Shown here: positions 606 through 23,007 of the stretch, piece after piece
Layout of the letters: every line of letters starts with the position of its first letter
Numbering within the stretch: position 1 is the first letter of the stretch
Assembly: GCA_028710405.1 (NCBI GenBank)
Contig: JAQTUD010000004.1
Span: forward strand, 1-34,173
Direction of reading: 5' to 3'
Origin: Candidatus Omnitrophota bacterium
GTDB taxonomy: Bacteria > Omnitrophota > Gorgyraeia > Gygaellales > Profunditerraquicolaceae
DNA length: 34,173 bases
The notes under the pieces: generated by a model
Seen by the model: only the letters and a program-made list of their open reading frames with translations
Database searches by the model: none
Told to the model about the DNA's origin: nothing
Program-made: the position numbers and the translations under genes

Positions 606-1475
606 ATGAATATCGGATATATGATCGGGATAGCGGTAGTGGTATTATTTTTTATGGGGATTAAAGTTGTGCGGCCCACGCACCGTGGTTTAGTTGAAAG
701 GCTGGGAAAATACAACCGTTTTGCCAAGCTGGGATTTAACTGGATTATCCCGGGAATCGAAAATCTGTATCAGGTCAATGTCACCGAGCAGATGGTAGAT
801 GCCGAGCCGCAGGAGATCATCACCAACGATAATTTAAATGCCAGGGTGGACGCGCAGGTTTATTTTAAGGTCAAGGACGATGAGTCCAGTGTTAAAAGTT
901 GCCAGTATAATGTGAATAATTATCAGTGGCAGATAGTGAACTTGGCCAGGACTACCCTGAGGAATATTATCGGGACCCTTACCTTAAAATCCGCCAACAG
1001 CGAAAGAGGGAAAATCAATTCTGAGCTGCACAAGACGCTGATGGAAGAGACCTCAACCTGGGGTATAGAGATTGTCAGGACCGAGTTAAAAGAAATAGAC
1101 CCGCCAAAAGACGTTCAGGAGACGATGAACAAGGTTGTTAAGGCCGAGAATGAGAAGATCGCGGCAGTGGATTTTGCCACCGCTACCGAGACCACTGCCG
1201 ATGGGCAGAAGAGGGCGGAGATCAAGAAAGCCGAAGGCATAAAGCAGGCCAGGATTTTAGAGGCTGAAGGCGAGGCAGAGGCGATCAAGCTTGTCAATGA
1301 AGCCGCCGAAAAATTCTTCGTCGGTAACGCCCAGGTCTTAAGAAAACTTGAAGCCGTAGAGCACGCGCTAAGTAACAACGCCAAGATTGTCGTACCCGCG
1401 GGCACGGAATTAGTCAATGTCATCGGCGAAATGGCCGGTATATTGCCTTTAAAGAGAGAATCAAAGGAAAAGTAG
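606..1475 (+). CDS. SPFH/band-7 (stomatin/prohibitin-like) membrane protein
   Basis: N-terminal TM helix, then RPTHRGLVERLGKY...NARVDAQVYFKV typical of the SPFH domain. Coiled-coil Ala/Glu-rich C-terminus. RBS GGGGGTG upstream. Confidence 0.8.
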   Translation: MNIGYMIGIAVVVLFFMGIKVVRPTHRGLVERLGKYNRFAKLGFNWIIPGIENLYQVNVTEQMVDAEPQEIITNDNLNARVDAQVYFKVKDDESSVKSCQYNVNNYQWQIVNLARTTLRNIIGTLTLKSANSERGKINSELHKTLMEETSTWGIEIVRTELKEIDPPKDVQETMNKVVKAENEKIAAVDFATATETTADGQKRAEIKKAEGIKQARILEAEGEAEAIKLVNEAAEKFFVGNAQVLRKLEAVEHALSNNAKIVVPAGTELVNVIGEMAGILPLKRESKEK

Positions 1476-1499
1476 CTATAAAGTTTGCTCTTGAGACAT

Positions 1500-1695
1500 A
1501 GATTCATTTTATGGTTTTGTACTCCGGCGCTGAAAATTTTCGCCGTCTGCTTCGGTTTACGGTTTGCTTTCGCTCCTGCCTTACCTATCAAGATAAGGTT
1601 AGTCGGCTTCAGCAACCCGTAATCCCTCGCAGACAGGACGCATTATATGGGCCGAAAATTTTCTAATGCGCCTTCGCACTAAAACCATAAAATTT
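1500..1695. other. About 195-nt extended imperfect inverted repeat (long hairpin); candidate structured ncRNA (6S-like shape) or MITE-like element
   Basis: 1500-1549 (cattttatggttttgtactccggcgctgaaaattttcg..cgtctgc) is reverse-complementary to 1629-1695 (gcagacag..cgaaaattttc..aaaaccataaaat). Inner arms ggtttacgg/ccgtaatcc and cctta/taagg continue the stem to an apical loop near 1590. No ORF. Confidence 0.35.
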
Positions 1696-1808
1696 AGTAA
1701 TGGGTTTCTCGGAGGCCTCTCTCAAACACCCCGAGTCACCCGCAAAAAATTAAGTAGCTTACAGTAGCAGACACAGAAACGGTCCTAAGATTGTAAGGAG
1801 GCCGAAAG

Positions 1809-2555
1809 ATGAGAAAAATATTATTAATAATTTTTTTATTATTAATTTTTAGTTTTGTAAAATCCAAGGCAGAAGAAACATCCATTGGAACCGCAGGAAA
1901 TCAAATAGAGACTAATGTAGTTTTATTGCAAAATAAAATTAGCGCCTTAGAGCAGAAAATTAGCACAGTTGATAAAGAGTTGGATAGAGTTTTGCAAACC
2001 TCGCAACATATTTGGCAGAATATTTTAACTGCTGTACTTACTATAATGGTGGCGCTCTTAGGAGCTAATATATTTAACACATTCTTTTATACTAGAACTA
2101 AAATAAATAAGGCCGAAGGATCATTAAGAAATGAGATAGCGGAAAAGCTGAAACAAATAAAGGGCGAATTTCAAGATAATGTTGATAATAAATTTAATAA
2201 GCTCAAAGATGAATACGATATTAAGTTCGATGAGTTAGATGCGGACATATGCGATGCTATTGGTAGGAATTATGTACAGGACAACCAAGAAGTCGGAGCT
2301 ATGTGGTTTGCCAGGTGTGTTGATAAATATATGGATCCAAAGAGATACCCTAACTTAGATAAAAAGACTGACGACTGGATTAAGGTTCGTATGGAGTGGG
2401 TCGTTGATAATCTGAAGAAAGGTGATAAATTGGATGAACCAAGATTTATCGCGGAACTCCAGGAAATTATATCAAGAATAGATGAAAATAAATATAAAGA
2501 ACAAAAAGAAGAAATACAAAAAGCATTAAAAGAAAATATTAATAAAACAGTATAA
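1809..2555 (+). CDS. Hypothetical protein, N-terminal signal/TM, coiled-coil, second TM; strongly AT-rich gene
   Basis: 248-aa ORF with RBS AGGAGG 7 nt upstream. Hydrophobic N-terminus MRKILLIIFLLLIFSFV and an internal TM (LTAVLTIMVALLGANIF). GC estimated by eye to be far below the flanking genes. Confidence 0.6.
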   Translation: MRKILLIIFLLLIFSFVKSKAEETSIGTAGNQIETNVVLLQNKISALEQKISTVDKELDRVLQTSQHIWQNILTAVLTIMVALLGANIFNTFFYTRTKINKAEGSLRNEIAEKLKQIKGEFQDNVDNKFNKLKDEYDIKFDELDADICDAIGRNYVQDNQEVGAMWFARCVDKYMDPKRYPNLDKKTDDWIKVRMEWVVDNLKKGDKLDEPRFIAELQEIISRIDENKYKEQKEEIQKALKENINKTV

Positions 2556-2561
2556 ATCTTG

Positions 2562-2585
2562 AATTCCGGAATTCCGGGGACTTAA
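2562..2585. repeat. Nested perfect palindromes gaattccggaattccgg (2x GAATTCCGG)
   Basis: ccggaattccgg (12 bp) and gaattccggaattc (14 bp) are each self-complementary. Lies in the 58-bp gap between the two AT-rich ORFs. Confidence 0.5.
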
Positions 2586-2613
2586 TTTCTAAAAAACAAA
2601 AGGGGAATGATTA

Positions 2614-2979
2614 ATGAGGGGGATTATAATATTCTTTATATTTATAATCTTGAGCACAGTTAATTTTGCATATGCGGAAAGTCAAGCAGATAAATTAGAG
2701 TTGATCGACAAACAAGATAATCCCAATATTATATACAAATCTAATCAGTATCAACTCATTATTGATAAACTAAAAGAATACACTACAGCAACAAGCGAAG
2801 AAGAAATCACTGCTTTAATATTTAAGGTTTACAGTGATTTAGAAAATAAATCTCCGGGACTTACTATTTATGAAGTTGCCGAAGAGATTAAAAAAACAGC
2901 AGGAATTCTCTACGATCAAGATGGCGGGAAGAAGCAAGATATTAGAAATATGGCAGCATTTTATATGACAACAAAATAA
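2614..2979 (+). CDS. Hypothetical small secreted protein (signal peptide), AT-rich
   Basis: 121-aa ORF. N-terminal IIIFFIFIILSTVNFAYA signal-like segment. No recognisable domain. Confidence 0.55.
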   Translation: MRGIIIFFIFIILSTVNFAYAESQADKLELIDKQDNPNIIYKSNQYQLIIDKLKEYTTATSEEEITALIFKVYSDLENKSPGLTIYEVAEEIKKTAGILYDQDGGKKQDIRNMAAFYMTTK

Positions 2980-3201
2980 GGGTAATTTCGGGGACGCAGT
3001 ACTTAATTATAAATCTTAGCGGGTGGATTGGCTGGGATTTCGAGGGACGTGGAGACAAGGAGCGGGCAAGGTTCACCCTATAAATAGATTGCTGTGAGAG
3101 CGACGCAGCCGACCCGAGCGAAGCCCCGCCACGCTGGGGCGGGGCGAGCGTTCCCGAGAAACCCAGACAAGCCAGCCGCGAGCGTTGGAAAGGAGTTAAG
3201 T

Positions 3202-3660
3202 ATGAAGAAATTATTCGTATTATCGTTAATCGTTTTATTTCTTACTCCTGCGCTTTGGGCGCAAGGGGAAGAGGATTTTTCGACGCCACTAGCGGCATTC
3301 CAAACTTATATCCGCGCTTGTCAGAGTCATGATTTTGATGCCGTAGACAATTGTTTCACCAAAGAGTTCAACAGGTTTAAAAAATCCAACAAGGAATATA
3401 TGAAACACCGCAACATGGGGCAATTGGATAATGAGCTAAGTTGCGTCTTGAATAAGGAGATCCAGGTTGACCTGCACAGCAGAAAAGCGATCATCTATCT
3501 CTACCCGGAAGATAGAAAAACGTCCCCTTATTTTATGACCAAAGAAGGCGGCCAATGGAAGATAGACGGAATGTTCATGTGGAATAACATAATTTTCGAT
3601 CAAAAAGACGAGTGGCATTGGGGCAACGGGAACAAGGAAAAGGCGTTTTTGAACAGCTGA
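3202..3660 (+). CDS. Hypothetical secreted protein; start moved to the internal ATG after the RBS
   Basis: AGGAG at 3191-3195, then ATG 3202 and signal peptide MKKLFVLSLIVLFLTPALWAQ. The longer ORF from 3094 would translate the GC-rich hairpin block (MRATQPTRAKPRHAGAGRA...) and is unlikely. Confidence 0.6.
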   Translation: MKKLFVLSLIVLFLTPALWAQGEEDFSTPLAAFQTYIRACQSHDFDAVDNCFTKEFNRFKKSNKEYMKHRNMGQLDNELSCVLNKEIQVDLHSRKAIIYLYPEDRKTSPYFMTKEGGQWKIDGMFMWNNIIFDQKDEWHWGNGNKEKAFLNS

Positions 3661-3663
3661 CAT

Positions 3664-4950
3664 ATGAGAGTTCTAGTTATCGGAAGCGGAGGACGGGAGC
3701 ATGCGCTGGTATGGTCGATAGCGCAGTCAAGGATGGTGGATAAGATCTTCTGCGCGCCGGGCAACGGCGGGATCTCTAAACTTGCGGAGTGCGTGGATAT
3801 CAAGGCCGATGATATAAAGAGGATATTGGATTTCGCCAGGAAAGAAAGAATAGACCTGACGGTAGTCGGCCCGGAAGTGCCTTTATCTGCCGGAATTTCT
3901 GATGAATTCATCAATCATAAAATAAAAGTATTCGGCCCCGGGAAAAAAGCCGCGCGCCTGGAGGCAAGCAAGGTTTTTGCCAAGGAGTTGATGGCAAAAT
4001 ATAATATTCCTACCGCAGCTTTCAAGATTTTTGATAACGCCGATTCCGCCAAGAAACATATTGAGAAGAACGGCGCCCCTTGCGTGGTCAAGGCCGATGG
4101 CCTGGCCCAGGGCAAGGGGGTAATTGTGGCCAAGACTATTGATGAGGCCAAAGATGCGGTAGATGCCATGATGCAGAAGAAGGTCTTTGGCGAGGCAGGA
4201 AGTAAGGTGATTATTGAAGAATGTCTAGTGGGGCAGGAGGCATCAATTTTAGTGATCACCGATTCTAAAGAAGTCATACCTTTGGCCTCGGCGCAAGACC
4301 ACAAGCGCATTTTTGATAATGACCAGGGCCCTAATACCGGCGGGATGGGGGCTTATTCTCCGGCGCCGATAGTAACCCCGAAACTCTTAGAAGAAATTTT
4401 AGATAAAGTTATTTATCGTGCCATAGACGGTTTGAACAAAGAAGGAATAGTTTATCGTGGTGTTTTATATGCCGGTATTATGCTAACCAAAGATGGCCCG
4501 AAGACCCTGGAATTCAACGTGCGTTTCGGAGATCCGGAGACGCAGGCGATACTGCCGCGGATGCGTTCAGACTTATTGGAGACAATGCTTGCGGTAAGCG
4601 AAGATAAGCTTAGCAAGGTAGCGAAATTAGGTGGGCTTAGCTGGGATAGCAGGCCTTGCGTGTGCGTGGTCTGCGCTGCCGGAGGGTATCCCGGAGATTA
4701 CCAAAAGGGCCAAGAGATTTTTGGCCTGCAAGAATTAGAGAATAACAAGGAAGCAGTGGTATTCCACGCCGGCACAAAAAAATCCGACGGTAAATATTTT
4801 ACCAATGGAGGCAGGGTGCTGGGGGTTACCGGTTTAGGCAATAATATTAGAGAGGCGATTGATAAGACATATCAGGCGGTAGATAAAATTCATTTTGAAG
4901 GGATGCATTATCGCAAGGATATCGGCAGAAGGGCGATATCCGAGGATTAG
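3664..4950 (+). CDS. purD: Phosphoribosylamine--glycine ligase (GAR synthetase)
   Basis: MRVLVIGSGGREHALVWSIAQS N-terminus and ATP-grasp region. Full length 428 aa. Confidence 0.9.
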   Translation: MRVLVIGSGGREHALVWSIAQSRMVDKIFCAPGNGGISKLAECVDIKADDIKRILDFARKERIDLTVVGPEVPLSAGISDEFINHKIKVFGPGKKAARLEASKVFAKELMAKYNIPTAAFKIFDNADSAKKHIEKNGAPCVVKADGLAQGKGVIVAKTIDEAKDAVDAMMQKKVFGEAGSKVIIEECLVGQEASILVITDSKEVIPLASAQDHKRIFDNDQGPNTGGMGAYSPAPIVTPKLLEEILDKVIYRAIDGLNKEGIVYRGVLYAGIMLTKDGPKTLEFNVRFGDPETQAILPRMRSDLLETMLAVSEDKLSKVAKLGGLSWDSRPCVCVVCAAGGYPGDYQKGQEIFGLQELENNKEAVVFHAGTKKSDGKYFTNGGRVLGVTGLGNNIREAIDKTYQAVDKIHFEGMHYRKDIGRRAISED

Positions 4951-9262: not shown

Positions 9263-9673
9263 ATGCTGGAGATGGAATTAAATAAGATCGTCATTGATGA
9301 GAAGAGGCACGATCAGCTCATCGTCTTAAAAGAGAAGAACGGCAACCGCATCCTGCCGATTGTTATCGGCTTGGCTGAGGCCTCGGCGATAAAATTAAAG
9401 ATCAGCGGTTTTACTCCCGCGCGCCCCTTAACCCACGACCTGCTGCATACTACCATAGAAAACCTGGAAGCCAGCATTGACAAGATCATCATCGACAAAT
9501 TAGAAGAGAGCACTTTTCACGCCAAGATCCTGCTGAAGACCGCAAGCGGCGCGATCAAAACCATAGATGCCCGCCCATCAGATAGCATCGCCCTGGCGGT
9601 GAGGGCGCATGCGCCGATATTCGTAGAAGAAGAGATTATTAAGCAGTCGGAGATTTTTAATAAAGAGAAATAG
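9263..9673 (+). CDS. Bifunctional nuclease family protein (DUF151/BFN domain)
   Basis: LPIVIGLAEASAIKL...PARPLTHDLL...KTIDARPSDSIALAVR is characteristic of DUF151. Confidence 0.7.
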   Translation: MLEMELNKIVIDEKRHDQLIVLKEKNGNRILPIVIGLAEASAIKLKISGFTPARPLTHDLLHTTIENLEASIDKIIIDKLEESTFHAKILLKTASGAIKTIDARPSDSIALAVRAHAPIFVEEEIIKQSEIFNKEK

Positions 9674-9683
9674 TTTGCGGGTA

Positions 9684-9824
9684 CCGAGGTTTGTTTTCGC
9701 AGCACCGCTCCATTTTCCCCACCGTGGAAAATGTCGCTTGGTGTTTATGCTCGCTCGCCCTCAGCTTGCGCTTCGGGCACCATGGCCGCTCGCATAAACA
9801 ACATGCTGCTCAAATCAAACCTCG
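9684..9824. other. About 140-nt branched inverted-repeat structure in the intergenic region; candidate structured RNA
   Basis: ccgaggtttg (9684-9693) pairs with caaacctcg (9816-9824). gtttatgc (9743-9750) pairs with gcataaac (9792-9799). Internal hairpin cattttcc/ggaaaatg (9710-9733). No ORF, no T-run terminator. Confidence 0.3.
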
Positions 9825-9858
9825 CTACCCTTAGTAATGTTAATAAGGTGCAATCTTA

Positions 9859-11310
9859 ATGAAATCCCACTTTGAATTTTCTCTGGAAGAACGAAATCTG
9901 CTCAAAGCTGTTTATAGTTTTGCGAAGACGCACAAAGTAAGGCCGTATATCGTCGGGGGGATATTGCGTGATATCTTACTGGGAAGAGAGAAAGAGAACC
10001 CAGATATAGATTTCTGTATCAAAAAAGGAGCGATAAATTTCGGTAGGCAGTTAGCCAGAGAGATAAAAGCGGGATTTGTAGTTTTGGACAAAGAGCATGG
10101 GGCCTGCCGCTTGGTCAGGAAGGCAAAGGATAAGATCTATACACTGGATTTCACGGATTTTCGCGGCAAAGATCTGGAAGATGACCTGCGCCACCGGGAT
10201 TTTACCATTAATGCCCTGGCCCTGGAGTGGCCGCGAGGGACGCTTATTGACCCTTGCTCCGGAGCCGCTGACCTTGCTAGAAAAATAATCAGGGTCCCTG
10301 ATAAGGGCGCGTTTATAGAGGACCCTTTAAGGATATTACGCGCTTTTAGTTTCTCCTCTCTGTTAGGTTTTAAAATCCAGAAGGAGACCCTCCATCTGGC
10401 GCGGCAAGCAAAAAAACTGCTCTCTAAAGTTTCTTGCGAGCGCATCCGCGATGAACTATTTAAATTGCTGGATAGCCGCAATTCTTATGAATATTTTCAG
10501 GCGTTAGATAAGTTGGGGATACTAAAAATTATCCTGCCGGAGATCGAGTTGATGCGTGGGGTGGCTCAAGGCCCGTATCATAATCTGGGAGTTTGGGAGC
10601 ATTCCCTGGAGGCGTTAAGGCAGTTTGAGGCGGTTGTTGAAGAATTCAAGAAGAACAGCTTCATCCATGCGCACCTTGAAGAAGAGATCTCTTGCCTCCG
10701 GCCGCGCCGATCTCTAATAAAATTGGCTATGCTTTTGCATGATGTGGGTAAGCCCGGCACTATGCGCCGGGAGGGTAAGAAACTTACCTTTCATGGCCAT
10801 GAGCACCTAAGTTGGGATATCGGCGTAGAGATCGCTCGGCGCCTGAAGCTTTCCAATGATGAATTAGACGCTTTGCGTAAGATGATCGTTAATCATCTGC
10901 GTCCCGGGTATCTGGCGGATCAGGGAATACTTACTCCTCGGGCGAAATTCCGTTATTTTCGCGATACCGGCATAGAGGCGCCAAGCGTATTATTGATCTC
11001 TCTGGCTGACCAGCGCGCCACCCGCGGCCGTCTGACCACTAAAGAATCGCGCGCCAGGCATGAGAAGACAGTCTCTGTTCTTTTAAGGGAGTATTTTAAA
11101 CAGAGGGGCCAGAAGAAAGTAACCCGCCTCTTAAACGGCGATGACCTGATCAAGATCTTTAAATTGCAACCCTCGCCTTTGATCGGAAGGATCCTCTCGG
11201 AGATAGAAGAGCTGCAGGCCATAGGCAGGATTAAAAATAAGGACGGGGCGCTGAAAATTTCCGCGGGGTTGATCAAAAAGACGAAGGCCAAAAATGAGAA
11301 AAAAGAATAA
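9859..11310 (+). CDS. cca: CCA-adding tRNA nucleotidyltransferase with HD domain
   Basis: PolyA-polymerase head domain YIVGGILRDILLG...DIDF, tRNA-NT region, HD motif MLLHDVGKP. 483 aa. Confidence 0.85.
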   Translation: MKSHFEFSLEERNLLKAVYSFAKTHKVRPYIVGGILRDILLGREKENPDIDFCIKKGAINFGRQLAREIKAGFVVLDKEHGACRLVRKAKDKIYTLDFTDFRGKDLEDDLRHRDFTINALALEWPRGTLIDPCSGAADLARKIIRVPDKGAFIEDPLRILRAFSFSSLLGFKIQKETLHLARQAKKLLSKVSCERIRDELFKLLDSRNSYEYFQALDKLGILKIILPEIELMRGVAQGPYHNLGVWEHSLEALRQFEAVVEEFKKNSFIHAHLEEEISCLRPRRSLIKLAMLLHDVGKPGTMRREGKKLTFHGHEHLSWDIGVEIARRLKLSNDELDALRKMIVNHLRPGYLADQGILTPRAKFRYFRDTGIEAPSVLLISLADQRATRGRLTTKESRARHEKTVSVLLREYFKQRGQKKVTRLLNGDDLIKIFKLQPSPLIGRILSEIEELQAIGRIKNKDGALKISAGLIKKTKAKNEKKE

Positions 11311-16777: not shown

Positions 16778-16947
16778 GTAAAAAGACACTTTGACAATTT
16801 GGTAAAAATGTCCTACTGAAAAAGGCAAACTAGCAGTAATGCTGGGGCGCAAAGCGACAGCCCCGACGTAAGTCGGGGGGCTGCGTTGCCAAAGAGGCTT
16901 GAAACCCTAAAGACTGCCTTTAGGGTTTATTTGTTTAGCCCTAAGTT
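16778..16947 (+). ncRNA. Candidate sRNA / structured leader of about 170 nt from promoter to first intrinsic terminator
   Basis: Transcript predicted from the promoter above. Contains an irregular hairpin of about 14 bp capped by GNRA tetraloop gtaa (16848-16891) and a 10-codon uORF (atg 16839..taa 16871). Ends at terminator 16913-16947. Confidence 0.35.
16913..16947 (+). terminator. Rho-independent terminator (11-bp stem + T-rich tail)
   Basis: aaaccctaaag-actgc-ctttagggttt followed by atttgttt. Confidence 0.6.
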
Positions 16948-17796: not shown

Positions 17797-17830
17797 AGGC
17801 CCGCTCTCGTTTGGGAGCGGGCCTTTTTAT
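17797..17830. terminator. Intrinsic terminator shared by the + strand micropeptide operon and the convergent helicase
   Basis: aggcccgctc-tcgtttgg-gagcgggcc followed by TTTTTATT on the + strand. The helicase stop codon lies inside the tail. Confidence 0.6.
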
Positions 17831-19707
17831 TATGCCTCGCGCAGCTGTTTCTCCGCGTCTATCACGTCGCGGTTAGTCACCCGGACAACCTCTTTTATTT
17901 TTTCTTTTAAGCCAGGCGAACATACCTTGGCATCCATGATCTCTCTTAAGATCTGTATCGCCATCCTGAAATAGCGCACTACTTCGCCCTCATCGGTATC
18001 AGTGAATTGTAATATCTTATCAAAGTTTGTCCCGCGCAGCCATCCTTCCATGCTTGAACTTAAATGAAAATACGGCTGTTTGCTAAAAGGATAAATCTTG
18101 TATTTCTGCTCCCGGTGTTTTATTAGTTCATATATCTCTTCGCAGGCATTTTTGACCTTATGGCCGGTCTTTGAGAGGCTGGTTACGCGTTGGTTCTTTC
18201 TGGGCTCAAAGACTGCCGCCGAGGCGATGATCCCTAAACCGAACTCATCTAATTGTTCCAGGATATTCTGGTCATAAAGTTCCGCCAGGATAAGCTCGTA
18301 ACCGTAGACATTCTTGGCGAATTGGCCTTTTTTGGTCAGGGCCCCTTTATCAATGTAACCCCATTCCTTAAGTAAATTTAATTTTGCCTCCATCAGCCTT
18401 AAGGCTTCTCTCTGGTGGTTTTTATGGGACTGGAAATAATGCAGCGATAGAGGATAGATTTTAAATAGCTCTTCTTTATGTTTTTCATAGAGGTTCAGGA
18501 TAGTAGCATAAGAAGTATTGAACTGGCTTCTGACCTGCTCGGCTCGGCCGTAAATAACGCGTTTTGCCTCGTCAAAATTTATGCGGTTTAAATTCAGGCG
18601 GCAGTAGACAAAACCTTCCTTGTCTATCCCCCGCCGTCCGGCGCGCCCGGCCATCTGGTAGAAATCCCGTGTTTTAAGATTACGCACATAGTGGCCGTAG
18701 AATTTGCGCAGTTCATCCAGGCATACCGAGCGGCTGGGCATATTTATCCCCAGGGCAAAGGTCTCGGTAGTGAATATGACTTTGAGCAGGCGGCTGGTAA
18801 ATAACCGTTCAATGACTTCTTTGAGGGTAGGAAGCATCCCGGCATGATGATAGGCAATACCCTGCTGTATGAGCGGATACATATTCTGCGCGCTGCGCTC
18901 GTGCTTTAAGTCAAAGCGTTCGCAGAGGGAGTTATACAGGTCGGTAATCTCGGCTCTTTCTTTGCCGTTAAGGAAATTAAAACTTTGTAATTCCTGGGCC
19001 AGGTCCTCGGCGCGCCTTCTCCCGAAGACAAAATAGATGCAAGGCAGGCCCTCCTTCTGGCGCAGGTAATTGATCAGCGTATTCATTTTATTCGGCCTGG
19101 CGAATTTGCCCCTTCTTACTTTGTCGATCTTGTCCACGATCTCATTTGAGCTCTGGAAGAAAAAGTGCAAGGGGACAGGGCGTTTCTCTTCAATTACCGT
19201 TTTTACCGGTTTATGGTGTATGGATTCTATCCAGGAGGCAAGTTCATTTATGTTGGGTATGGTTGCCGAGAGCGCCAGCAACTTCATATGTTTGGGAAGG
19301 AATATCAGGGATTCCTCCCAGACTGTCCCGCGCTCGGGATTGTCAATATAATGCACCTCGTCAAAGATGATCCAGGAGTACATCTGGAGGCTCTCCGGTT
19401 CATCCAGCACTTTATTACGGAAGATCTCGGTAGTCATGATCAATACTGGGGCCTGGGGGTTGATAGAGACATCCCCGGTCAATATACCGATGTTATCACC
19501 GAATTGCTGGTAGAAATCGCGGAATTTCTGGTTAGAGAGGGCTTTGATCGGGGCAGTGTAGATGACCCCCAGGTTATTCTGGATGGAGTTATTGATCACA
19601 TACTCGGCAATAGCGGTTTTTCCCGCTCCGGTGGGCGCCGAGACGATTACCGAACAGCCCTGGTTTATATAATCAATAGATTCCTCCTGGAAGCGGTCAT
19701 ATATCAT
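17830..19707 (-). CDS. SF2 DEVH-box helicase, Ski2/Hel308-like
   Basis: Motif I SAPTGAGKT, motif II DEVH, motif VI QMAGRAGRRG. 625 aa. Only minus-strand gene in the window. Confidence 0.8.
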   Translation of the reverse strand: MIYDRFQEESIDYINQGCSVIVSAPTGAGKTAIAEYVINNSIQNNLGVIYTAPIKALSNQKFRDFYQQFGDNIGILTGDVSINPQAPVLIMTTEIFRNKVLDEPESLQMYSWIIFDEVHYIDNPERGTVWEESLIFLPKHMKLLALSATIPNINELASWIESIHHKPVKTVIEEKRPVPLHFFFQSSNEIVDKIDKVRRGKFARPNKMNTLINYLRQKEGLPCIYFVFGRRRAEDLAQELQSFNFLNGKERAEITDLYNSLCERFDLKHERSAQNMYPLIQQGIAYHHAGMLPTLKEVIERLFTSRLLKVIFTTETFALGINMPSRSVCLDELRKFYGHYVRNLKTRDFYQMAGRAGRRGIDKEGFVYCRLNLNRINFDEAKRVIYGRAEQVRSQFNTSYATILNLYEKHKEELFKIYPLSLHYFQSHKNHQREALRLMEAKLNLLKEWGYIDKGALTKKGQFAKNVYGYELILAELYDQNILEQLDEFGLGIIASAAVFEPRKNQRVTSLSKTGHKVKNACEEIYELIKHREQKYKIYPFSKQPYFHLSSSMEGWLRGTNFDKILQFTDTDEGEVVRYFRMAIQILREIMDAKVCSPGLKEKIKEVVRVTNRDVIDAEKQLREA

Positions 19708-19762
19708 AGGGTTATTATATAGTTGATTTATCCAGAAATAAAGGGTAAAATAAAAGTAATCC

Positions 19763-19885
19763 CTCGCCTAAACACGGCAAAAATTTCATAAAACAATAAG
19801 CAAGAAACTTTTGCCGTAGGCTTCGGGATAAATTCGCACAAATAACTTATGTCGGCTTCGCCTCCATAAGTTATGTGCTCATTTA
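19763..19885. repeat. Copy 1 of a structured direct repeat of about 125-135 bp, abutting the thermonuclease start codon
   Basis: About 85% identical by eye to 20455-20592. Contains hairpins cggcaaaa.../...ttttgccg and gcacaaataacttatg-tcggcttcgcctc-cataagttatgtgc, and a cUUCGg motif. Confidence 0.6.
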
Positions 19886-20443
19886 ATGAAAAAGACTGTG
19901 TCATTGATGATATTGGCGTTATTAGCCAGCCTGCCTTTGATCGCCCAGGAGCTGCACGTAGATTATGATCCTAAGAAGGGCATAGTAAGCATTCCTTTCG
20001 GCCAGGCCCAGGCCCAGAAGGCTTATGTCCTGGTGAAAAGGGCGGTGGACGGGGATACCCTGTTGTTAGTGGATGGGCAGAGGGTGCGCTTAATCGGCAT
20101 AGACACTCCGGAGATGCACGAATCGGATAAACTTTACCGCGATGCCCAACGTACCAACCAGGACGTCAACACCATCAAAAAATTAGGCAGGCAGTCTTAC
20201 GAATTTACCAGGAGTATGGTGGAGGGCAAGCGGGTGAGCCTGGAATTTGACGTAGAAAGGCGCGATAAATACGAACGCCTGCTGGCTTATGTCTATCTTG
20301 AAGACGGCACCTTTGTAAACGCCGAGATCGTGAAGCAGGGGTACGCGTCTTTAATGACTATCCCGCCGAATAATAAATACGCGGATCTATTTTTGAAATT
20401 ATATCAGGAAGCGCGCGAAAATAAGCGCGGGTTGTGGAAGTAA
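19886..20443 (+). CDS. Secreted thermonuclease (staphylococcal nuclease/SNase-like)
   Basis: Signal peptide MKKTVSLMILALLASLPLIAQ. VDGDTLLLVDGQRVRLIGIDTPE...YERLLAYVY...NAEIVKQGYA SNase motifs. Confidence 0.8.
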   Translation: MKKTVSLMILALLASLPLIAQELHVDYDPKKGIVSIPFGQAQAQKAYVLVKRAVDGDTLLLVDGQRVRLIGIDTPEMHESDKLYRDAQRTNQDVNTIKKLGRQSYEFTRSMVEGKRVSLEFDVERRDKYERLLAYVYLEDGTFVNAEIVKQGYASLMTIPPNNKYADLFLKLYQEARENKRGLWK

Positions 20444-20454
20444 ATGAGGCTCTT

Positions 20455-20592
20455 CCCTTGCCTAAACGCGGCAAAAATTCCAGAAACAAGAGGAAAGGAA
20501 TTTTTACCGCAGGCTTCGGGATAAATTCGCAGACGGCCCTTACGGGCCTACAACTTATGTCGCTTCGCTCCATAAGTTGTCTGCTCATTTAA
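20455..20592. repeat. Copy 2 of the structured direct repeat, abutting the aroC RBS/start; carries an extra 14-nt hairpin insert
   Basis: Same element as 19763-19885, with the insert cggcccttacgggcc and compensatory stem changes (tttc/gaaa->ttcc/ggaa; ataactt/aagttat->acaactt/aagttgt). Confidence 0.6.
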
Positions 20593-20603
20593 GGAGGAGA
20601 TAA

Positions 20604-21644
20604 ATGTTGAGATGTCTGACCGCAGGGGAGTCGCATGGCAGGGGGATAATCGCCATTTTGGAAGGGATGCCCGCCGGGATAAAGATTGATGTAGCGGTAG
20701 TGGATCGGGAATTAAAACGCAGGCAGTCGGGATTTGGCCGGGGTAAGCGCATGCAGATAGAAAATGATTTGGCGCAGCTTGTCTCCGGTTTAAAAAACGG
20801 CCTGACCCTGGGGAGTCCGCTGACGCTACTTATTTTGAATAAAGATTTCAGCATAGAGAGGCTGCCTAAGGTGCTTAACCCGCGCCCGGGGCACGCGGAT
20901 CTGGCCGGCCTGTTAAAATACGGGTTCAGTGACGCCAGGAGTGTTTTGGAACGCGCCTCCGCCAGGAGCACGGTGGCAACCGTAGGGGTAGGGGCGGTCT
21001 GTAAGATTTTCTTAAATAATTTCGGCATCAAAATATCCAGCCGGGTCCTCTCTGTCGGGGGTGAGAATACCGCCGAGGGAATAAAAGAGAAGATCACGGA
21101 GGCGATACGTAATAAAGATACTGTGGGAGGGATTTTTGAAGTCATTGCCAGAGGCGCGCCTTGCGGGCTGGGTAGTTATGCCCAGGCAGACAGGCGTCTT
21201 GATGGCCGCCTTGCCCAGGCGTTAATGTCTATCCCCGGGATCAAGGCCGTAGAAATAGGCCTGGGTTCAGGATACGGGATAAGTTTTGGCTCAGAGGTCC
21301 ACGACGCGATCTATTATAAAAATGGCAAAGGATATTTTCGTAAGACCAATAATGCCGGCGGAATTGAGGGTGGGATATCTAATGGCCAGGATATTGTGCT
21401 GCGGGCCTGCATGAAACCTATTTCTACGTTATTGGATCCGCTGGATTCGGTGAATATAGCCAGTAAGAAACATGCCTTAGCCAGCACCGAGCGTTCGGAT
21501 ATCTGTGTAGTAGAGGCGGCAGGAGTAGTGGCAGAGTCAGCTTGCGCCTATATTTTGGCAGATGCTATCCTGGAGAAGTTCGGCGGGGATAACCTTTCGG
21601 ATATCAAGAACTCATATCAGGGCTATTTGAAAAGAATTAGATAA
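20604..21644 (+). CDS. aroC: Chorismate synthase
   Basis: MLRCLTAGESHGRG...GRGKRMQIE...RSDICVVEAAGVVAE signature. AAGGAGGAG RBS. Confidence 0.9.
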   Translation: MLRCLTAGESHGRGIIAILEGMPAGIKIDVAVVDRELKRRQSGFGRGKRMQIENDLAQLVSGLKNGLTLGSPLTLLILNKDFSIERLPKVLNPRPGHADLAGLLKYGFSDARSVLERASARSTVATVGVGAVCKIFLNNFGIKISSRVLSVGGENTAEGIKEKITEAIRNKDTVGGIFEVIARGAPCGLGSYAQADRRLDGRLAQALMSIPGIKAVEIGLGSGYGISFGSEVHDAIYYKNGKGYFRKTNNAGGIEGGISNGQDIVLRACMKPISTLLDPLDSVNIASKKHALASTERSDICVVEAAGVVAESACAYILADAILEKFGGDNLSDIKNSYQGYLKRIR

Positions 21645-22644: not shown

Positions 22645-22955
22645 AAAAATGCCCTTATTGCGCGGAAGAAATACAGGATGAAGCGATAAAGTGCAGGTTT
22701 TGCGGAGTGATGTTGGATAATAAAGACCCCAAGACTAAGTGGTATTTTAAAACTTACTGGTTAGTTATTGCTTTCTTGAGCGTAGGCCCATTTGCCTTGC
22801 CGCTGGTCTGGCTAAATCCCCGTTATGATCAGAAAAAGAAGATAATTATAACCATAATAATTATTATTTTAACTTATTATGTGGGCTCTTTGCTTATGGG
22901 TTCCTTCAGGTCCCTAAAACAATATTACGACATCATCTCGCGGGGTAGTTTCTAA
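22641..22955 (+). CDS. Zinc-ribbon membrane protein, hypothetical
   Basis: [19 protein letters not shown] zinc ribbon, then 2 TM helices including a poly-Ile tract ([10 protein letters not shown]). Confidence 0.5.
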
Positions 22956-22980
22956 AAAAAGGGGCCTGACCCCTTTTTTT
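22955..22980. terminator. Intrinsic terminator, palindromic with A-run/T-run (bidirectional potential)
   Basis: aaaaaaagggg-cctga-ccccttttttt. Confidence 0.6.
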
Positions 22981-23007
22981 AGAAAAGCGCCTGAGTCCTT
23001 TTTTTCT

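Follow-up and report, generated by a model that had tools for sequence, protein, structure and literature searches.

Several described systems built on short repeats or structured sites offer a comparison for the locus examined here. Composite elements flanked by MITEs (miniature inverted-repeat transposable elements) include integron mobilization units and TIME-COMP units, the latter made from Tn3-derived inverted-repeat miniature elements. REP elements measure 20-40 nt, and REP/BIME, REPIN and ERIC/Correia-type families are not known to bracket foreign genes in a systematic way. The attC sites of integrons are 57-141 nt long and carry R'', L'', L' and R' boxes with a GTTRRRY core. Two published accounts (PMC8352920, PMC2727003) give background on attC structure and on cassette pools. 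The subject of this study is a two-gene block at positions 1476-3201 of a 34,173-nt stretch of DNA (the window; GenBank assembly GCA_028710405.1, contig JAQTUD010000004.1) from a Candidatus Omnitrophota bacterium. The block is compositionally foreign and is framed by two families of structured repeats, here called HP (left border) and GCB (right border), which also bracket AT-rich genes at other Omnitrophota loci. Omnitrophota are uncultured and, to our knowledge, almost nothing has been reported on how they acquire genes. Loci other than the window are cited by L numbers.

A foreign gene block in a conserved purine operon

The block interrupts a conserved row of genes, purM-SPFH-purD-purE, with purM upstream and purE downstream. 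Its left anchor, an SPFH/Band-7 gene (606-1475, + strand; Pfam Band_7, 2.4e-37), encodes a protein with 80-87% amino acid identity to counterparts in many Omnitrophota metagenome-assembled genomes (MAGs), where purM also precedes it; no record of the exact window protein was found. The right anchor is purD (3664-4950, + strand). Of the 80 related Omnitrophota loci that were fetched, 41 have it downstream of SPFH (tblastn, 55-78% identity). In these loci the two genes are neighbours, with a spacer of 4 to 4,724 bp. Relatives of the two block genes, ORF1 and ORF2, and of the open reading frame (ORF) that follows them, ORF3, are found in none of the 80 loci (tblastn, 1e-5). Because the spacer varies in length and the 80 loci are without these three ORFs, the SPFH-purD spacer is a variable hot spot and the block is accessory.

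The two genes stand out by composition. ORF1 (1809-2555, + strand, 248 aa) has a GC content of 0.313 and a GC content at third codon positions (GC3) of 0.285, and the corresponding values for ORF2 (2614-2979, + strand, 121 aa) are 0.306 and 0.262. The remaining 32 ORFs of the window average 0.475 (standard deviation 0.028) in GC and 0.560 (standard deviation 0.047) in GC3, giving z scores of -5.7 (GC) and -5.9 (GC3) for ORF1 and of -6.0 and -6.4 for ORF2. The original prediction, made from the sequence alone, had called the pair AT-rich by eye, and both measures confirm this at about six standard deviations below the other ORFs. A 700-nt GC scan of the window reaches its minimum (0.309) within the block and is at least 0.427 everywhere else, and the profile of the full 34 kb has no second AT trough.

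Horizontal acquisition, also proposed in that prediction, is supported by the composition, by the absence of the block from all 80 related loci, by a spacer that ranges from 4 bp to 4.7 kb, and by the small number of relatives of its genes, which lie in other AT-rich contexts (see below). The two-gene block is compositionally foreign, horizontally acquired, strain-specific accessory cargo. As had been noted, no tRNA or integrase accompanies it: the window contains no tRNA or transfer-messenger RNA (tmRNA) gene, and the ORF translations reveal no recombinase or integrase inside the block. An integrase-mediated island at a tRNA or tmRNA gene does not fit these absences or flanking repeats that are inverted, not direct. 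With regard to phage or plasmid origin, two pattern scans of viral contigs gave chance-level matches only, and blastn against phage and plasmid collections gave no match.

Two new families of structured repeats

HP and GCB are two new, dispersed families of structured repeats that are absent from Rfam. In a blastn comparison with the 80 loci, the block matches at its two non-coding ends only, in either orientation. The families were delimited with blastn, nhmmer profiles and a covariance model in these loci and in a separate metagenome set. For HP and GCB, neither the window nor a further 20 loci that carry GCB give an Rfam match at gathering score, and a search of positions 1400-3300 at E<=10 yields chance-level matches (E 0.9-8) to unrelated families, none of them on HP or GCB. 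Full-text literature searches returned nothing on such elements in Omnitrophota.

HP occupies positions 1496-1705 (+ strand; core 1506-1693) and is a long imperfect hairpin of about 190 nt, recognized as a copy of a dispersed repeat with an nhmmer score of 137 (E 1.8e-40). It is closed by a perfect 13-bp stem, ATTTTATGGTTTT (1506-1518) with AAAACCATAAAAT (1681-1693), and contains an inner perfect 11-bp stem, GAAAATTTTCG with CGAAAATTTTC. The fold of 1476-1808 has z scores of -4.5 (+ strand) and -5.5 (- strand), and none of 100 shuffled sequences is equally stable. The stems and fold scores uphold the large left-hand hairpin of the original prediction, with its extent refined to the coordinates given here. 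In an alignment of 18 HP sequences (A4), 39 pairs are 93.9% paired, compared with about 40% in slid controls, and 20 of these pairs show compensatory changes. The conserved blocks read GAAAATTTTCGCCGTGTGCTRCGGTTTACGGCTC and CGCCGTAAT.CCTTGCACAC ... TGCCGAAAATTTTCTAATGC. The palindrome is nearly complete along the element, which means that terminal inverted repeats are present. The window and the 80 SPFH loci together contain ten full copies, and metagenome loci contribute eight more. Identity with 6S RNA was rejected: no model matches, the element is multicopy and found in both orientations, and its 3' bulge is optional, so that it lacks a conserved central bubble.

The full copy of GCB in the window lies at 2996-3192 (+ strand) and is a GC-rich, multi-helix repeat of about 190 nt (covariance model score 165.5 bits, E 5e-49). 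The GC-rich hairpin block predicted for this border is present: 3095-3185 is 72.5% GC, the hairpin GCCCCGCC-ACGCTGG-GGCGGGGC lies at 3123-3145, and GCGAGCGTT occurs twice (3144-3152 and 3178-3186). However, the border consists of the whole multi-helix element and not of the hairpin alone. In an alignment of 114 GCB sequences, 94.2% of cells are paired (37-48% in slid controls) and 1,041 cells have changed on both sides (253 +/- 17 in shuffles), values that overstate conservation to some degree because the metagenome loci were picked by their GCB pattern and aligned by the model. The termini read TTTT(A)GCGGGT...ACCCGC(A)AAA, with an outer helix of about 20 bp just inside. The hairpin loop, ACGCUGG, may pair with an invariant GCGGGC to form a pseudoknot, and a G-C to C-G swap in two sequences lends this pairing weak support. 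More than 100 GCB copies were found in total, in both orientations and at several sites, and GCB-like cores occur in genomes of 36-67% GC.

A second, divergent copy is located at 9664-9854 (- strand; 100.7 bits, E 5.8e-29), in the spacer between a 136-aa nuclease-like gene and a gene of the poly(A) polymerase/CCA-adding enzyme family. It carries the swap in the putative pseudoknot, and its terminus begins immediately after a stop codon, TAG being followed directly by TTTGCGGGTACC. The window also holds a truncated, inverted copy (mini-GCB; 1687-1769, - strand) that is internally deleted and retains the terminal helix only (TGGGTTTCTCGG ... CACCCGC). This assignment is supported by a perfect 12-nt inverted repeat, 1701-1712 with 3154-3165, that includes a window-specific variant of the GCB 3' arm. 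The cargo thus lies between two GCB copies placed head-to-head, mini-GCB(-) and the full GCB(+), and HP is located immediately to the left of this bracket. Mini-GCBs that keep the termini and have lost the core are also present in L038 and L017 (four copies in the latter), and the head-to-head layout is kept. In a partial comparison, partner GCB copies were not mutual nearest relatives.

Several known identities were considered for these elements. GCB was rejected as a riboswitch or leader of the purine operon, as its orientation is independent of its neighbours and these are unrelated to one another. Retrons, group II introns, omega-RNA and bridge-RNA were dropped because no reverse transcriptase, TnpB, IscB or IS110 gene lies near any copy.

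Structure of this kind might instead reflect a role at the RNA level. GCB, and perhaps HP, would then be functional structured RNAs at gene boundaries, either a new multicopy class of small RNAs or modules that process, stabilize or insulate mRNAs. Operon spacers would accept foreign genes only where such modules frame them, the cargo itself would come in by some unrelated route, and the polarity described below would reflect constraints on expression. The very strong covariation in four GCB helices would be expected on this account, as would U.G pairs conserved on a defined strand only, the candidate loop-to-strand pseudoknot with its swap in two sequences, and conserved unpaired blocks (GAGCGGGCA, CACGCUGG; CUAAUGC in HP). 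GCB-like cores lie beside unrelated housekeeping genes in genomes with 36-67% GC, and HP and GCB of the window are on the coding strand of the operon. Other traits speak for elements that act as DNA. Variable pairs are almost free of G.U wobble (5 of 702 HP cells and 2 of about 650 cells of the GCB hairpin), GCB termini are symmetric, inverted pairs are found, and insertion is polymorphic. Minis remain in their head-to-head layout even though the entire conserved core is gone. The housekeeping neighbours follow no orientation rule, the 3'-side neighbour being convergent in 27 cases and co-oriented in 13. A promoter/terminator scan of the window gave a result no better than shuffles, with no such signature for the elements, and Rfam holds no matching family. 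We regard an explanation at the RNA level as doubtful.

Recurrent brackets, polarity and cargo exchange

Elsewhere in Omnitrophota the same elements frame ORFs of 27-34% GC and 22-32% GC3 in genomes of 40-47% GC. HP(+) and HP(-) enclose an ORF of 195 aa in L015 and one of 113 aa in L018, and a partial HP(+) and a GCB(+) enclose one of 242 aa in L016. GCB(-) and GCB(+) lie on either side of two ORFs (211 and 238 aa) in L033, and a GCB(-) and a mini-GCB(+) on either side of one (134 aa) in L038. The order in L269 is GCB(-), two ORFs, GCB(+), two ORFs, GCB(+), and AT-rich ORFs are bracketed in the same layout in L277, L284 and L302. Pairs of the same element around passenger DNA comprise mini-GCB(-)/GCB(+) of the window and full pairs in L033, L269, L277, L284 and L365. 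Cargo-free arrangements are found as well. HP and GCB abut in tandem in L035, L254, L300, L303, L304, L317 and L318, and GCB(-) and GCB(+) abut head-to-head in L062, L268, L313 and L305, with mini pairs in L017.

The bracketed proteins are mutually unrelated and most have no Pfam family. The few that could be assigned are BamE-like lipoproteins, HEPN + nucleotidyltransferase pairs, and radical-SAM and TIR-like proteins. None of the bracketed proteins is a transposase or recombinase. Among 36 + 87 flanking ORFs and the neighbour clusters there is likewise no transposase, and no protein family, of these enzymes or of any other kind, recurs beside the elements.

The brackets are polar. In the genome set, an AT-rich flank was defined as one with GC at least 0.10 below that of its own locus. 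HP has such flanks exclusively 3' of the element (7 of 9 copies, against 0 of 10 for the 5' side), and GCB has them exclusively 5' of the element (8 of 15 copies, against 0 of 15 for the 3' side). Among high-scoring GCB copies of the independent metagenome set, AT-rich ORFs make up about 12 of the 42 neighbours on the 5' side and none of the 40 on the 3' side. Directly downstream of core genes, HP(+) and GCB(-) can take each other's place. Genomes differ in which of the two follows SPFH, and the spacer between the nuclease-like and CCA-enzyme genes carries GCB(-) in the window and L047 and HP(+) in L033. This second spacer is empty in 13 related loci (0-27 nt) and measures 185-212 nt when it holds one element.

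Two pairs of loci show the replacement of cargo between near-identical flanks. L015 and L018, which come from the same MAG bin, have flanks that are about 85% identical and share their HP borders, and their inner segments (667 vs 433 nt) are unrelated. L034 and L321 are 98% identical through SPFH and GCB. The two sequences part about 15 nt into GCB, counted from its 5' end, then carry 673 vs 2,997 nt of unlike content, and re-join 31 nt before purD.

Repeats can mislead assembly, and the block could conceivably have been misplaced by mis-assembly across HP and GCB, or be an old resident of unusual composition. One Logan contig of 1,476 bp (run SRR22315508) carries the exact cargo. It matches 1569-3044 at 100% identity and terminates within HP on one side and just within GCB on the other, so these repeats do break short-read assembly graphs, and the SPFH-HP junction is seen in the window assembly only. 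However, the same contig spans the HP-cargo and cargo-GCB junctions and thereby reproduces both independently at 100% identity. AT-rich cargo framed by the same brackets occupies the SPFH-purD spacer in independent assemblies from many samples, and an assembly chimera is unlikely given the same layout in so many of them. Native heterogeneity is contradicted by the lack of any other AT-rich stretch in 34 kb and by the absence of the block from 80 relatives. Taken together, misplacement or long residence is a most improbable account of the block.

A model for cargo capture and exchange

The model that we favor, to which we give about an even chance, is that HP and GCB are MITE-like elements that provide portable ends or recombination substrates for the capture and exchange of cassettes. 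Both would be non-autonomous, MITE-like palindromic families of about 190 nt, with terminal inverted repeats and stems constrained to Watson-Crick pairing. The block would be a strain-specific insertion at a hot spot of insertion or recombination between the SPFH gene and purD, framed by HP and then the truncated inverted GCB on the left and by the full GCB on the right. Pairs of elements, either head-to-head or HP with GCB, could act as portable ends like those of a composite transposon, or as portable sites of homology or recombination. Foreign genes might in this way be captured, swapped and kept in operon spacers without breaking the operon. A mobilizing enzyme, of which none was found, would presumably act in trans, and either the whole bracketed unit would move or cargo alone would be exchanged. 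Features typical of MITEs are seen here, namely dispersed copies, terminal inverted repeats, and presence/absence polymorphism at orthologous sites. The original prediction was sound in recognizing a foreign accessory block, and it missed the repeat families, the truncated inverted copy and the recurrent polar layout.

A number of observations weigh against this model. No autonomous partner or candidate enzyme is present among the flanking ORFs and neighbour clusters examined. Inspection of about 57 GCB flanks and of the L033 pair revealed no target-site duplication; the divergence between empty and filled sites is too great for an alignment. No bracketed unit was encountered at more than one site, and strongly AT-rich cargo ORFs are singletons across the fetched loci. 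A plain MITE with terminal inverted repeats gives no reason for the strict 5'-inward polarity of GCB. The internal helices of GCB covary heavily and conserve U.G pairs on one strand (109-183, 85-352, 102-238), with a possible pseudoknot; such features characterize a functional single-stranded RNA or DNA fold and not a simple transposon end. Genes of ordinary GC content, too, have GCB-like cores beside them (L276, L351, L365). The conservation measured for GCB is inflated by the choice of metagenome loci, as described above, and mini-GCB of the window gives a weak covariance-model match (19.5 bits, E 7.6e-4) and, on the identical Logan contig, a weak nhmmer match as well.

A bolder proposal goes beyond the MITE-like model. 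HP and GCB could be the recombination sites of a previously undescribed cassette-capture system in Omnitrophota, with GCB-like cores in other phyla, that is functionally analogous to integrons and has different sites, an inverted geometry and an unlinked recombinase. Its folded modules of about 190 nt, seated in fixed operon spacers, would take up, retain and exchange AT-rich orphan cassettes. We consider this unlikely. In a weaker variant, GCB would be a new and widespread class of pseudoknotted, structured nucleic acid absent from Rfam.

Cargo genes and their relatives

The products of the block had been predicted to be surface or secreted effectors. Both translations have hydrophobic, signal-like N-termini when read directly (MRKILLIIFLLLIFSFVKSKA followed by EE in ORF1, MRGIIIFFIFIILSTVNFAYA followed by ES in ORF2). 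The effector reading is unsupported, as Pfam, NCBIfam and PADLOC searches of ORF1-3 gave nothing convincing and fold searches were empty. ORF1 has a second hydrophobic helix at about residues 68-90 and further long predicted helices, and its AlphaFold model contains a C-terminal helical bundle (predicted local distance difference test score, pLDDT, 83-96). ORF2 is modeled as a small all-helical protein (mean pLDDT 69). Neither model matches a PDB structure in Foldseek at E<=0.001. A LeoB match (1.4e-5) in the function search of ORF1-3 spans residues 71-140 only, which is a hydrophobic/helical stretch, and was not accepted. The Shine-Dalgarno sequence of ORF1, AAGGAGG, is 8 nt 5' of the start. 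Because ORF1, ORF2 and ORF3 each have a good Shine-Dalgarno sequence upstream, the cargo genes may plausibly be expressed by read-through together with the operon.

Relatives of the cargo genes are few and reside in other AT-rich accessory contexts. Among 5.8 billion proteins, ORF1 has two close relatives (61% and 57% identity), and a profile search extends its family to about 29 cluster representatives, none with a Pfam family. One of the two close relatives (L248, 7300-9300) heads an AT-rich islet of about 2 kb, with GC of 0.28-0.43 vs 0.47-0.53 in the flanks. It is followed by a SocA_Panacea gene and unassigned ORFs, with a ParE toxin gene farther on, and the 278-nt spacer on its 5' side contains AAAATTTT-type palindromes without a match to HP. 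The other close relative adjoins PLDc_2 and resolvase genes.

ORF2 has three relatives at 70-73% identity among the same proteins, all in other contexts. One, in L374, adjoins a DruA gene and is flanked on both sides by direct repeats of about 75 nt (approximately 2453-2525 and 3070-3140) that read ACACAATAAGGAACGT.T.CTTCTAACTAGTTGCGATTAAGTTG.TTCTGATGGAAGTGT. Another is encoded within a run of small ORFs in L376 (3220-7256), a Logan contig of 34% GC. One hairpin, GCTTCTAATTTTTGAAAAATAGAAC, with G/C clamps and A/T runs around it, occurs in five inter-ORF spacers of this contig and is also found in L374, L262 and L275. The repeated hairpin could mark a cassette array or be a series of bidirectional terminators.

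Cargo ends and small repeat modules

The spacer between ORF1 and ORF2 contains a module (E4a, 2562-2600, + strand) that consists of the palindrome CCGGAATTCCGG and the box CCGGGGAC-TTAATTT and is terminator-like in the scan. The box recurs at 2984-3012 (E4b, + strand; AATTTCGGGGACGCAGTACTTAATTATAAA), immediately 5' of the GCB 5' end, and at cargo ends in other loci. A related box, GGGGACGGTTCTAATTTT, precedes GCB(+) in L269 (twice), L073, L321, L261 and L033, and both window sites are degenerate forms of it. The cargo-end box may be a cassette site or may belong to a family of bidirectional terminators.

The locus invites comparison with integrons. On such a reading, an unlinked site-specific recombinase would bring in, remove and shuffle promoterless AT-rich cassettes, and its folded single-strand sites would be HP, GCB and the small GGGGACGGTTC...GAACCGTCCCC hairpins. 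The cargo pool, made up of small, mostly orphan and often membrane or secreted ORFs together with HEPN/MNT, TIR-like and radical-SAM genes, is like that of chromosomal integron arrays. Consecutive cassettes in L269 each end in a GCB(+), the conserved box stands at cargo 3' ends right before GCB, and the common hairpin in five spacers of L376 and the direct repeats around the ORF2 relative in L374 could be read in the same way. Cargo swaps are precise between conserved borders, and stems are restricted to Watson-Crick pairing. Nevertheless, no integrase lies beside any array examined. The elements, at 190 nt with 4-5 helices, are larger than attC sites, and no GTTRRRY/RYYYAAC cores are seen by eye in alignments A2-A4. 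The brackets are mostly inverted, not direct, although L269 and L376 resemble arrays of one orientation. The distance from box to GCB varies from 16 to 32 nt, so that no fixed crossover point is visible, and the small hairpins could be mere bidirectional terminators. Integron-like shuffling is thus quite improbable.

Other small modules are associated with the elements. A third module, of about 45 nt and absent from the window, reads GGCTAAAATCGACATTCGCTCG..CGCCAGATTCATTT and sits between the cargo and the HP 3' end or GCB 5' end. It is found in forward orientation in L015, L016, L034, L321, L337, L333, L320 and L310, and in reverse, fused to the GCB 5' end, in L277, L284, L350, L327 and L275. 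A sigma-54 promoter in the E3 module was dropped as a candidate because, on inspection, its GG/GC elements are wrongly spaced. L033 (about 10880-10920) and L015 (about 1005-1045) carry a small palindromic repeat, CGTCAT(T/C)..GAG.CTGCC(A/G)TAGGCAG.CGAAG.A(A)TC, which follows the SPFH stop codon directly and precedes HP or GCB.

The Omnitrophota genomes studied here contain several palindromic repeat families. A dispersed repeat, AGGGACGGTTCTCAA..AAGCAAAAGTGTCCC, is often arranged in inverted pairs, and another reads GGGGACTGTCCC. Sites of these two repeats are L047 (10876/10944), L302 (2371/2434), L317 (3098/3163), L315/L338, L028 (7502), and the spacer after the nuclease-like gene in L031.

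Other features of the window

ORF3 (3202-3660, + strand, 152 aa) lies between GCB and purD and has a signal-like N-terminus. With a GC content of 0.418 and GC3 of 0.536, its codon composition is near normal, unlike that of ORF1 and ORF2. The protein search returned no homolog besides ORF3 itself, and tblastn gave no match in the 80 loci.

Three further non-coding features are located away from the block. A c-di-GMP-I riboswitch aptamer matches at 16814-16893 (+ strand; 73.3 bits, E 9e-13), and between it and the - strand gene at 17830-19707 there is no large + strand ORF. A non-coding element of about 135 nt is duplicated at 19760-19889 and 20454-20595 (81-89% identity), just 5' of two + strand ORFs, at 19886-20443 and at 20604-21644 respectively, and may represent a leader common to both or a cis-regulatory RNA. 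Finally, the ORF ending at 22955 is followed at 22949-22985 by a perfect 16-bp palindrome with a 5-nt loop, TTTCTAAAAAAAGGGG and CCCCTTTTTTTAGAAA, that resembles a bidirectional terminator.

Implications

The architecture is reproducible: at defined operon spacers, conserved and structured repeats enclose a highly diverse set of AT-rich orphan genes, among which are defence-like and toxin-antitoxin-like ones. Should the repeats be agents of capture or exchange, they would represent a new route of accessory-gene flux that spares essential operons. The HP and GCB models would also offer a sequence handle on strain-variable genes in metagenomes. The same repeats can break short-read assemblies and misplace accessory genes in MAGs. 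Whatever its role, GCB is a strongly covarying fold of about 180 nt without an Rfam family and is worth describing.

Comparison with known systems

Islands targeted to tRNA or tmRNA genes resemble the locus in that an AT-rich accessory block lies beside a structured element in a conserved backbone. In contrast, the locus described here has no tRNA or tmRNA gene and no integrase, and its flanking repeats are inverted rather than direct.

REP/BIME, REPIN and ERIC/Correia-type families share with HP and GCB their dispersal as palindromes in gene-end spacers, mosaic head-to-head arrangements, compensatory changes, and an enzyme that, if there is one, is unlinked. Unlike REPs, the elements here are about 190 nt long and have a conserved multi-helix core.

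Integron cassettes, attC sites and clusters of attC sites lacking integron-integrases (CALINs) offer several parallels. These are diverse small orphan and toxin-antitoxin-like cargo of deviant composition, structured sites constrained in their pairing, arrays, and exchange of cargo between strains. However, HP and GCB do not have the length, core motifs or uniform direct orientation of attC, and no integrase or attI was found.

Palindrome-associated elements derived from IS200/IS605 have structured, unlike and strand-asymmetric ends, as HP and GCB would be, and give no duplications of the kind made by elements with terminal inverted repeats. In both cases cargo is enclosed by a left end and a right end, the latter adjoining the flanking gene. 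The head-to-head GCB pairs do not fit a scheme of left and right ends. No TnpA (Y1) or TnpB gene is present near about 200 element copies, and no conserved target tetranucleotide or flank motif is seen at the elements.

The likeness to MITE-flanked composites lies in two short, non-coding elements with terminal inverted repeats around passenger genes, no transposase inside, and the occurrence of empty and filled forms. They differ in that the elements here are multi-helix, covarying and of two families, with GCB always 5'-inward, and in that no target duplication, partner transposase or second copy of any unit was found. Set beside all these systems, structured and polar brackets that draw on two repeat families, with no enzyme linked to them, are new.

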